This document shows positions 45,179 through 47,537 of a stretch of 64,000 nucleotides of DNA, piece by piece. Position numbers and translations under genes: made by a program. The first letter of the stretch is position 1, and each line of letters begins with the position of its first letter. This stretch comes from Escherichia coli (lineage in GTDB: Bacteria; Pseudomonadota; Gammaproteobacteria; Enterobacterales; Enterobacteriaceae): NCBI RefSeq assembly GCF_013122565.1, contig NZ_CP053258.1, one strand, 5' to 3'. The notes under the pieces are model-generated. The model made no database searches and was not told where the DNA came from. It was given only the letters and a program-made list of their open reading frames with translations.

Positions 45179-45604
45179 TGCTATCAATTTCCTGCCTGTT
45201 TATACCCGGCCATTGCAAGGTGAAAACCCTGGGCACCGACGTCTTTAGATAAATCTTACGGTATAAATAGCACTTTTTCCTGATTTGAAATTGATACCTT
45301 TTTAATCGTCATCTGGATAAAAATAATTCATTGATATTCAAATTAATTTTCTTCAGGAATGCAGGGCGGCGGGAAGATATGCCCTTAATGCCACAGAAAA
45401 ACCACATAATCTGTACAGCAATAAAAGTCACGACCTAATCTGGCTAACAAACAATCAATTGTGATATAGTTCACAAATTAATGAAACAAACAGAGTGTTT
45501 CATTTTTGTGTTCTGCAAGCCCCGCGATAGCCAGAGTGTACCACGCCTCCCGTGAACAACGCCGCGCTGTCCAGGGCATCGGCTCTTTTCAGAGGAATTG
45601 TTTG

Positions 45605-45886
45605 ATGGCTACCCTCACCACTGGCGTGGTTCTTCTTCGCTGGCAACTTCTTAGTGCCGTAATGATGTTTCTGGCCAGCACACTCAACATCCGTTTTCGT
45701 CGGTCTGATTATGTCGGGCTTGCAGTGATCAGCAGCGGTCTGGGCGTGGTTTCCGCCTGCTGGTTCGCAATGGGGTTGCTTGGCATCACAATGGCGGACA
45801 TCACCGCCATCTGGCACAACATCGAGTCGGTGATGATAGAAGAGATGAATCAGACACCGCCACAGTGGCCAATGATTTTGACCTGA
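45605..45886 (+). CDS. yjcB: Small membrane protein YjcB (93 aa)
   Basis: MATLTTGVVLLRWQLL...; two TM helices. Confidence 0.6.
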   Translation: MATLTTGVVLLRWQLLSAVMMFLASTLNIRFRRSDYVGLAVISSGLGVVSACWFAMGLLGITMADITAIWHNIESVMIEEMNQTPPQWPMILT

Positions 45887-46157
45887 TTTCACTTTCTTGA
45901 CTTTTATCCCTTCACAAGCGGTCGATAAATAGCTTCCTCGGCCGCCCTATCATCACATATCGCATTTTCTTTTAATCAACGCTTGAAGGTGTTGTACGCT
46001 TAGCATCTTCACTATCTTCGCCACCTCCTTGCTGAATTTTATACAAATGAGCAATTTTTGATAGTTCAAAATTTGATTAAGGCTAGGATGAAAACAAATA
46101 AACTGCACTACCTAACGTCCAACGTAATGTTCTCAATAAATTATAAAGGAGAAGATC

Positions 46158-46739
46158 ATGACGATATATAATAATAATATAGGAACTCAAAATACAAAAA
46201 CACTGGAGCAATTTCAGAATGACCTGGTTAAAGCAGATAAAAAATTTGCAAATTCATCAAAATTAAACGCAGTTATTTATAAAAAGATTGATGGCTTTAC
46301 AAATCTTTTGAAAGATCTTATTCATTTCATCACGCATGGGAAAGTCGAGTTTAATTCGCAGCGAGTATCTAAACTCATGGCAGAAGTAACCTCTTTCGAG
46401 TCCAATATTGATGGAACCCCCAAAGATATAAATTTTATTTCTCAAAATGATTATTTACGCCAAACTGTATCCATCAGACAAGATGGGCTAGGCACAAAAA
46501 TAATATTCAGTGTAGAGGAAACCCATTTTAATATAGACCATGGCGTTTTTTTACACGGAAAAAAATGGAGTGAAACAAGATCGCTTCCTGAAGAATTAAA
46601 TATGGCTATTGTTGTTGAAAACCTTAGAAAATTGACCACACAGTTAAACAAAGCCGAGCGACACGAAGTAGAAAGAGAGTATAAAGAATATAAACTGGTA
46701 CAAAGTGCAAAACTGAATATTTTGTATAACCCGGAATAA
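46158..46739 (+). CDS. Hypothetical protein (193 aa), AT-rich orphan
   Basis: Clean ORF with RBS AAAGGAGAAG about 6 bp upstream of the ATG; no recognisable motif; AT-rich by eye. Confidence 0.5.
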   Translation: MTIYNNNIGTQNTKTLEQFQNDLVKADKKFANSSKLNAVIYKKIDGFTNLLKDLIHFITHGKVEFNSQRVSKLMAEVTSFESNIDGTPKDINFISQNDYLRQTVSIRQDGLGTKIIFSVEETHFNIDHGVFLHGKKWSETRSLPEELNMAIVVENLRKLTTQLNKAERHEVEREYKEYKLVQSAKLNILYNPE

Positions 46740-46850
46740 TAAAATAATGAGAGGAACAATCCTTGACTATTTCAGGAGCCGAAATTCATTTTCGACTCCT
46801 GTACGCATATGTTTCGCGTTAAAAGATCTCAATACAAAAGATGCATATCC

Positions 46851-47387
46851 TTAGAACGGAATGTCGTCATCAAAGTCCATCGGCGGCTCGTTAGACGGCG
46901 CTGCCGGAGCGGACTGCTGCGGGCGAGACTGCGCGCCGCCGCTGAACTGATTGCCACCCTGCGGCTGCTGAGGCTGACCCCAACCGCCCTGCGGCTGACC
47001 ACCACCGATATTGCCACCTGCCGGAGCGCCACCACCCTGACGACCACCCAGCATCTGCATGGTGCCGCCAACGTTCACCACGACTTCTGTGGTGTAGCGA
47101 TCCTGACCGGATTGATCGGTCCATTTACGGGTACGCAGCTGACCTTCGATATACACCTGAGAACCTTTACGCAGATATTCGCTGGCTACTTCTGCCAGTT
47201 TGCCGAACAGCACAACGCGGTGCCATTCAGTCTGCTCTTTCATCTCGCCGGTCGCTTTATCACGCCAGGATTCGGAAGTAGCCAGCGTAATGTTGGCAAC
47301 AGCGCCACCATTTGGCATGTAGCGTACTTCCGGGTCCTGACCCAGATTACCAACGAGAATAACCTTGTTTACGCCTCTGCTGGCCAT
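46851..47387 (-). CDS. ssb: Single-stranded DNA-binding protein
   Basis: [28 protein letters not shown]...; Gly/Gln-rich tail ending DFDDDIPF; 178 aa. Confidence 0.95.
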
Positions 47388-47537
47388 GTTCGTGTCTCCT
47401 GAAAAAAATCGTTCTGAATAAGTGTAAACGCGCGATTGTACCATTACCAATAGCGCTTTTACTATGTTGTGACCTCGGTTCCGGGAAACAAACCTGGCCA
47501 GACATTGTTACACAACACTCCGGGTAATGCATTCCAA

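Follow-up and report, generated by a model that had tools for sequence, protein, structure and literature searches.

What is a single AT-rich open reading frame (ORF) doing between two core genes of Escherichia coli, and where does it come from? The question is raised by a 64,000-nucleotide stretch of E. coli DNA (contig NZ_CP053258.1; hereafter the window, meaning the whole stretch that was analysed), in which an orphan ORF of 193 amino acids (aa) lies between yjcB and ssb. A first-pass annotation, made from the sequence, had seen in it a horizontally acquired single-gene islet, possibly encoding a toxin/immunity, effector or anti-phage factor. Here, we describe an E. coli-only gene in a 964-bp islet that replaces the entire spacer between the two core genes. 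The best explanation, taken as a whole, combines this gene and islet with a foreign origin and a conflict mechanism, and we give it a probability of roughly one in three (about 0.35).

The orphan ORF and its setting

The ORF, its ribosome-binding site, the islet and the core genes on both sides are located as follows (dS, synonymous substitutions per synonymous site).

46158..46739, + strand: orphan ORF, 193 aa, ATG start
46146..46151, + strand: Shine-Dalgarno sequence AAGGAG, 6 nucleotides (nt) upstream of the ATG of the orphan ORF
45887..46850: islet, 964 bp, GC content 0.34, delimited by alignment with the K-12-like, 06-00048 and S51 loci
45605..45886, + strand: yjcB, left core flank, co-oriented with the orphan ORF; identity to other E. 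coli 98-100%, dS 0-0.08
46851..47387, - strand: ssb, right core flank, convergent with the orphan ORF; protein unchanged

The first-pass annotation had the boundaries of the ORF exactly right, and the strong ribosome-binding site that it had assigned to the gene is present as AAGGAG in haplotypes A and B and as AAGGAA in haplotype C. The gene order soxR-soxS-pdeC-yjcB-[ORF]-ssb-uvrA agrees with the RefSeq annotation of matching genomes, and the description of the surroundings as conserved backbone holds as well. The marked AT-richness, which had been read from the letters, was confirmed by calculation. The ORF has a GC content of 0.326 (0.43, 0.27 and 0.28 at the first, second and third codon positions; GC3 0.284), whereas the flanking genes range from 0.45 to 0.58 with a GC3 of 0.46-0.65 (yjcB 0.535, ssb 0.583, uvrA 0.556 and pdeC 0.450) and the whole window has 0.515. 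Across the 64 kb, just 2.9% of all 582-bp segments have a GC content as low as that of the ORF.

The predicted protein has a mass of 22.3 kDa and an isoelectric point of 7.9, is rich in Lys, Glu and Asn, and contains no Cys and no transmembrane or hydrophobic segment. Judging from these properties, the ORF encodes a small soluble protein without signal peptide or membrane segment. The NCBI database already holds the exact protein of the window as a 'hypothetical protein' (WP_171459980.1 / QJU25935.1), and a literature search by protein accession yielded no match.

Evidence for coding

Three alleles of the ORF have been found, and the protein can be divided into three regions.

Allele A, 193 aa: window, 06-00048 and several draft assemblies
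Allele B, 158 aa: S51 and 19 other near-identical complete genomes
Allele C, 158 aa: N3 and metagenome copies
46158..46289, + strand: hypervariable N-terminal module, aa 1-44; haplotypes 64-82% identical at the nucleotide level
46290..46631, + strand: conserved core, aa 45-158; ratio of nonsynonymous to synonymous substitution rates (dN/dS) 0.35-0.40, dS 0.16-0.29; 81 residues invariant in all alleles
46632..46739, + strand: C-terminal tail, aa 159-193, in haplotype A only; Lys/Glu-rich, predicted to be helical

Within the first 158 codons, 49-86 substitutions separate the alleles from one another. When these substitutions were placed at random, the 158-codon frame remained open in 1.9% (A-B), 1.8% (A-C) and 7.3% (B-C) of the trials. 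Moreover, the N-terminal indels of 12 and 45 nt are both in frame, and the excess of synonymous changes in the core is significant (P = 0.008, 0.003 and 0.03). Within allele A, dN/dS is 0.1, and the tail is open in all 12 distinct full-length 193-aa variants of haplotype A. By this comparison of alleles, the orphan ORF is a genuine protein-coding gene, of which the core (aa 45-158) is under moderate purifying selection. The composition is unlike that of the flanks and the coding frame has been conserved, two of the points on which the first-pass annotation had made itself dependent. An ORF on the opposite strand (46451..46759, - strand, 102 aa) was discarded as a gene, since both the indels and the substitution pattern by codon position fit the frame on the + strand.

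An islet in place of the ancestral spacer

The islet takes the place of the whole spacer between yjcB and ssb, from stop codon to stop codon, and the AT-richness covers the entire 964 bp and not the orphan ORF alone. In K-12-type genomes the spacer has a length of 98 bp and contains a bidirectional terminator (GAAGCCTCC...GGAGGCTTC). The homology to K-12 ends one base past the stop codon of yjcB and restarts within the stop codon of ssb, which is TAA in the window and TGA in K-12-type genomes. Almost all E. coli have retained the K-12-type spacer, as have Escherichia sp. MOD1-EC7003, E. whittamii and Escherichia sp. E1V33; E. albertii and strain SCPM-O-B-8794 retain it as well, both with a repeat element added. 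No similarity to the islet, neither at the nucleotide nor at the protein level, was detected in the yjcB loci of 37 other species. Since the K-12-type spacer is shared by other Escherichia species, it is ancestral and the islet is derived. The opposite scenario, in which K-12 has lost an ancestral islet by deletion, was rejected because the other Escherichia species share the K-12-type spacer and none of them has islet sequence.

Inspection of the islet revealed no transposase, recombinase or other mobility gene and no other ORF with a domain, and the search for terminal inverted or direct repeats and a target-site duplication gave just short, chance-level repeats. The islet is present as a single copy in every carrier genome. 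A mobile element, be it an insertion sequence (IS), a miniature inverted-repeat transposable element, a transposon, a GInt/Tn6571 element or an integrative island, was rejected due to the lack of terminal repeats, the single copy and the lack of plasmid, phage or viral relatives. Likewise, no donor or vector of the islet was found in the phage, plasmid, viral and species-genome collections or in the 37 yjcB loci. Horizontal acquisition of a single-gene islet, as proposed in the first-pass annotation, is supported: the islet is derived, AT-rich, rare and located at a documented hotspot (see below), but neither a donor nor a mobility gene has come to light. We infer that the islet was acquired horizontally from an unsampled source. 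Since then, it may have spread by vertical inheritance or by way of homologous recombination in the conserved flanks.

The spacer of E. albertii and SCPM-O-B-8794 has grown to 232-275 bp (L018 4283-4560; L019 4280-4512). The added length comes from a palindromic, repeat-element-like insert (GCCTGATGCGCT.CGCTTATCAGGCCTAC...GCCGCATCCGGCA) upstream of the conserved terminator.

Distribution among genomes

The distribution across E. coli genomes, which the first-pass annotation had named as a check, was determined with 5,426 complete genomes. While yjcB is present in 5,424 of them, just 22 (about 0.4%) carry the islet, in every case on the chromosome between yjcB and ssb. The same context was observed in the draft assemblies and metagenome contigs that encode the orphan protein, and a scan of metagenome DNA added just two further copies. 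The carriers are all E. coli proper, with flanking genes that are 97-100% identical to those of the window, and 20 of the 22 lie within 0.6 percentage points or less of each other in identity to the query (86.7-87.3%). Poultry meat, pig, calf, vegetable and human commensal sources are represented among the carriers, and no link to a pathotype is apparent.

A 9.5-kb contig of a Flavobacterium paronense assembly (L016; NZ_JAUFQN010000013.1) encodes YjcB and SSB proteins that are 100% identical to those of E. coli. This contig is almost certainly an E. coli contamination of the assembly.

Homology and structure searches

A word-indexed search of 5.8 billion proteins returned five clusters, all of which are E. 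coli alleles of the orphan protein, and an exhaustive phmmer search of 1.84 billion representatives gave two matches, both to the same family. No relative of the ORF was found in the 100,044 species genomes of GTDB, by tblastn against phages and plasmids, or among the viral contigs of IMG/VR. By the measure of these searches, the orphan protein is a true ORFan that is restricted to E. coli. The statement that it has no recognisable motifs also withstood the profile searches: Pfam gave nothing significant (best match Viral_env_E26, E-value 0.2) and NCBIfam no match. In PADLOC-DB 2.0, alleles A and C had no match and the sole match of allele B, to PbeC, was not significant (E-value 0.011, 67 residues of a 661-position model). 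Similarly, PHROGs yielded only phrog_5553 and phrog_18667, both of unknown function, at non-significant E-values of 0.011-0.3, the best match of a PDB profile search was an S-layer protein (E-value 0.2, not significant), and fold searches gave nothing significant. As to a toxin-antitoxin or toxin-immunity pair, neither a toxin or immunity domain (Pfam, NCBIfam) nor a co-oriented partner gene was found; the one small ORF nearby (45953..46108) lies on the - strand and is broken in other alleles. None of the roles named in the first-pass annotation gained direct support from these searches.

Structure prediction, a further check that had been proposed, was run with AlphaFold2 on alignments of 6 and 9 sequences. 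The mean predicted local distance difference test scores (pLDDT) are 48.5 for allele A and 53.3 for allele B. Both low-confidence models agree in the order of secondary-structure elements, which is strand-helix-strand-helix-helix followed by five strands (and a long C-terminal helix in allele A); the core would thereby consist of two helices and a five-stranded antiparallel beta region. However, the AlphaFold DB model of the identical 158-aa protein has a template modelling (TM) score of just 0.29 to our own model. The prediction thus supplied a consistent secondary structure but no reliable fold, and the models are too unreliable for a fold to be trusted.

Divergence between the alleles

The nucleotide difference between the alleles is 0-3% across pdeC, yjcB and the first ~200 bp of the islet, rises to 16-17% at 46095-46194 and peaks at 32-36% at 46195-46294. 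In the remainder of the ORF and in the 3' non-coding sequence it amounts to 6-17%, before it returns to 0-3% in ssb. In the core, dS is 0.25-0.29 between A and B or C and 0.16 between B and C, which is 3-6 times the dS of 0.03-0.10 for the flanking genes in the same strain pairs. The first 44 codons show a dN/dS of ~1.2-1.6, which is not significantly above 1, and nonsynonymous changes are 3-6 times as dense in the N-terminus as in the core (P <= 1e-3). From these rates, the first ~45 residues are changing at or above the neutral rate while staying in frame. The N-termini of the alleles (MTIYNNNIGTQNTKT, MPIIFSPNTLK and MPRIASSNTLK) are polar and have few acidic residues.

One explanation is that the alleles predate the core genome around them, having been maintained by balancing or frequency-dependent selection or imported from unsampled relatives. 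Another is that the islet mutates and drifts fast under weak constraint, and the data fit both views equally.

Truncation and a coding repeat

Alleles B and C share the deletion of a G at position 46634 of the window, which leads to a stop after ...NLPHS and a protein of 158 aa, and a 2-nt deletion further downstream. Furthermore, allele C contains a perfect (TTCAA)n repeat within the coding variable region, which is absent from allele A of the window. The repeat has 2.8 copies in N3 (L013 1777-2253) and in two database proteins. With 3.8 copies in a metagenome contig (L054, ~354-500), it causes a frameshift and a stop after 48 aa, and with 11.8 copies in L006 (4014-4072) it is in frame and adds 15 aa (QFNSI inserted three times). 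This variation, which was seen across samples (n=5 allele-C sequences), looks like slipped-strand on/off variation.

Expression signals

Two hairpins flank the orphan ORF within the islet.

45918..45945, + strand: imperfect hairpin GCGGTCGA-12 nt-TCGGCCGC, read from the sequence; present in the minimum-free-energy fold; no T-run
46773..46801: hairpin with a 12-bp stem, CAGGAGCCGAAA/TTTCGACTCCTG; with one mismatch in the window and none in L001 and L006; no T-run

A scan of 45400-47500 found the sole terminator-like site at 45617-45630, inside yjcB. The ancestral terminator after yjcB is absent in the window and in its place stands the imperfect hairpin at 45918-45945, which is not a canonical terminator. 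Because the ancestral terminator is gone and its replacement lacks a T-run, read-through from yjcB into the ORF, and hence co-transcription of the two genes, is plausible. The ORF is probably transcribed by such read-through or from a weak AT-rich promoter and, by analogy with other AT-rich foreign DNA, it is probably repressed by H-NS. The hairpin at 46773-46801 folds better than shuffled sequences (z-score -2.1) and sits where the bidirectional yjcB/ssb terminator was located ancestrally; it may be regarded as a putative terminator for the convergent transcripts of ssb and the ORF.

The insertion hotspot between yjcB and ssb

The junction between yjcB and ssb is hotspot 39 of a survey of E. 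coli defence islands, in which it was occupied in 38 of 1,292 genomes (PMC10121019 S1 Table). Hotspots with three or fewer genes were scored as 'empty' in this survey (PMC10121019). Since the islet contains a single gene, it would therefore be scored 'empty' and not be counted under this rule. Elements of the GInt/Tn6571 family occupy hotspot 39 (PMC10121019), and an 18-kb 'yjcB-ssb defense island' with Detocs and a dGTPase has been described at this site (PMC11728103). Like this cargo, the islet is foreign, AT-rich DNA at the same intergenic site between the same core genes. However, it consists of one gene and 964 bp instead of many genes and up to 18 kb, it has no recombinase or recognised defence system, and it replaces the spacer rather than being inserted into it.

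In the draft assembly GCA_031590935.1 (L012 5700-8246), a YgjP-like gene and the R subunit of a type I restriction system follow the islet where ssb would be expected, and the homology to the window ends at 46854, inside the stop codon of ssb. This is probably one of the GInt/Tn6571-type elements that have been reported for the hotspot; if so, its position beside the islet means that the islet and such elements are independent. Another arrangement at the junction was observed in E. coli 2014C-3075 (L005 3440-6303), in which yjcB is just 86% identical to that of the window and a carbohydrate porin and a major facilitator superfamily transporter adjoin yjcB in place of ssb and uvrA.

In Salmonella, pathogenicity island 4 (SPI-4) is located between ssb and yjcB (PMC12607715). 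SPI-4 (siiA-F) has the same flanking core genes in a related genus, and the site accepts foreign DNA across the Enterobacteriaceae. In contrast to the islet, SPI-4 has a length of 24 kb and codes for a type I secretion system together with a giant adhesin, and it is unrelated in sequence to the orphan ORF.

Conflict protein, remnant or ordinary accessory gene

What could the gene be good for? We tentatively suggest that the orphan ORF encodes a stand-alone conflict protein, which might act in the defence against phages or mobile elements or as an immunity-like binder. The case is circumstantial and draws on the location, the allele pattern and the repeated inactivation of the gene. In such a protein, the conserved alpha/beta core would supply the activity or a scaffold and the hypervariable N-terminal helices would supply the target specificity. 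Expression would be costly enough to be switched off repeatedly, by truncation, IS1 insertion or repeat slippage. Hyper-divergent alleles, a fast-evolving N-terminus and an unstable repeat fit a conflict gene, but they fit relaxed constraint as well. It appears improbable that the gene is the sole component of an unrecognised single-gene conflict system, with the N-terminus setting the specificity, the alleles under frequency-dependent selection and allele C switched by slippage.

Several observations weigh against a role in conflict. Neither by sequence nor by a confident fold does the orphan protein match a defence, toxin, immunity or effector family (Pfam, NCBIfam, PADLOC, PHROGs, PDB and fold searches), and the known defence cargo of the hotspot travels on large recombinase-bearing elements and not in the islet. 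A consensus scan found no sigma-70-like promoter between yjcB and the ATG. Two of the three alleles are truncated, an IS1 element (IS1A) interrupts the allele-B ORF of GPEC1446 at codon 13 (L015 1830-2527), and the copy of the ORF on contig L054 is frameshifted. Moreover, dN/dS of the flanks is 0-0.1, so that the core at 0.35-0.40 is much less constrained. Relaxed constraint would explain the N-terminal dN/dS equally well because this value is not significantly above 1. Finally, the high synonymous divergence points to old or imported alleles or to a local mutation-rate effect, and not to protein selection alone.

Part of this evidence serves an alternative that we hold to be unlikely, although it competes seriously: the gene may be a decaying remnant, the last gene of an older foreign insertion in the hotspot, which is useless and slowly degrading in a few clonal lineages. 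A remnant would be expected to look much like what is seen, that is, rare (22/5,426, with 20 of the carriers at 86.7-87.3% identity to the query), truncated in B and C by a 1-nt and then a 2-nt deletion, hit by IS1 in GPEC1446 and frameshifted in L054, without a promoter detected upstream, and with an N-terminus evolving at about the neutral rate and a core dN/dS that is high for E. coli. However, the frame has stayed open across three alleles despite 49-86 substitutions each (P ~0.02, 0.02 and 0.07), the synonymous excess in the core is significant, and in-frame indels and a conserved ribosome-binding site have been retained. Moreover, the 158-aa form is conserved between B and C, which have since diverged by 8%, and there are 12 intact 193-aa variants.

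It is rather unlikely that the gene encodes an ordinary cytoplasmic accessory protein with no role in conflict, for instance a nucleic-acid-binding or regulatory protein with a Whirly/PUR-like fold of a beta-sheet plus helices, as the models might suggest. Its fast evolution would then reflect low expression and AT-rich, H-NS-bound DNA. The shared secondary-structure order of both low-confidence models and a soluble, Lys/Glu/Asn-rich protein without membrane segment would suit this alternative, but the pLDDT of 48-53, the TM score of the AlphaFold DB model of just 0.29 and the absence of sequence matches to DNA- or RNA-binding families in Pfam, NCBIfam and PDB speak against it.

There is little to be said for a secreted effector or virulence factor, such as a type III substrate with the polar, Ser/Thr/Asn/Ile-rich N-terminus as a signal. 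In its favour are the AT-rich, foreign character of the gene, the polar N-termini poor in acidic residues, which presumably resemble those of effectors, and the SPI-4 virulence island, which occupies the same site in Salmonella. Yet no homology to known effectors was found (Pfam, NCBIfam and both protein-collection searches), no chaperone or secretion gene adjoins the ORF, the carriers have no evident link to a pathotype, and the N-terminus, the would-be signal site, is the least conserved part of the protein. Last and least, a chance open frame in AT-rich non-coding filler, to which the absence of homologues outside E. coli, of domains and of a detected promoter as well as the poor structure prediction might point, is very unlikely because the frame is kept across the alleles with purifying selection on the core, a synonymous excess, in-frame indels, a kept ribosome-binding site and start codon and 12 full-length variants; besides, an open frame of 193 codons is in itself improbable at 33% GC, and AAGGAG stands at the ideal spacing.

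Comparison with ORFans and contingency genes

The ORFans of E. coli, according to Daubin and Ochman, are reportedly short, AT-rich and lineage-specific and are thought to derive from phages or unknown donors. The orphan gene resembles them in being short, low in GC, confined to the species, patchy in distribution, faster-evolving than core genes and annotated as 'hypothetical protein'. In contrast to them, it is not located in a prophage, has no adjoining mobility gene and no phage, viral or plasmid relative, and exists as three deeply diverged alleles at one fixed chromosomal site. Of the features that mark an ORFan in an AT-rich islet, the absence of homologues outside the species, the deviant composition and the derived state were found, and a donor was not.

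Phase-variable contingency genes with short coding repeats are known from Haemophilus, Neisseria and Campylobacter, and repeat-driven on/off switching is rare in E. coli. Allele C has a coding pentanucleotide repeat that varies in copy number and is out of frame in one case. Unlike in contingency genes, the variation of allele C comes from different samples (n=5) and not from within one strain, and the frame-shifting repeat belongs to allele C, whereas allele A of the window has none.

Further features of the islet and the window

The 5' part of the islet is conserved and was also inspected.

45887..46094, + strand: 5' non-coding part of the islet; the three haplotypes are 98-99% identical here, a divergence at background level

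Because its low divergence equals that of the core-genome background, the 5' ~200 bp of the islet need no special explanation. An Rfam search of this part returned noise only and its folding is not better than that of shuffled sequences (z-score -0.84), on which grounds a structured RNA was rejected. A small antisense ORF (45953..46108, - strand), which is preceded by a perfect AAGGAGGTG, was rejected as a gene because it is broken in other copies, by 1-nt indels in haplotype C and L014 and by an insertion in L007; going by these breaks, it is probably not a gene. In GPEC1446, RefSeq annotates the remainder of the orphan ORF 3' of IS1A as a separate hypothetical protein of 147 aa.

Segments that are as GC-poor as the orphan ORF also occur at ~37.5 kb, ~52.3 kb and ~62.3 kb of the window. 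The stretch of lowest GC content (~0.30) is 37573-38865 (+ strand), where an AT-rich gene 3' of the acetate permease gene encodes a 430-aa pentapeptide-repeat protein. We take this protein to resemble YjcF of K-12. A second AT-rich ORF of 180 aa (52463-53005, + strand; local GC content ~0.30) lies between aphA and tyrB and has a duplicated ISYAKDF motif; L006 has a 167-aa ORF in the same position.

Biological meaning

At its simplest, the orphan gene is one more rare, strain-specific gene of E. coli that is already present in the databases as a 'hypothetical protein'. The locus illustrates that a hotspot scored as 'empty' can still carry foreign single-gene cargo that is missed by gene-count thresholds. 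Moreover, it is a compact case of extreme local divergence, with 32-36% over 100 bp within flanks of 0-3%. The combination of an old presence/absence polymorphism and a divergence peak makes it a tractable case for deciding between orphans as conflict genes and orphans as dying passengers. If the gene did prove to be a single-gene conflict system, it would represent a new protein fold or family in bacterial immunity and a case of repeat-mediated phase variation in E. coli.

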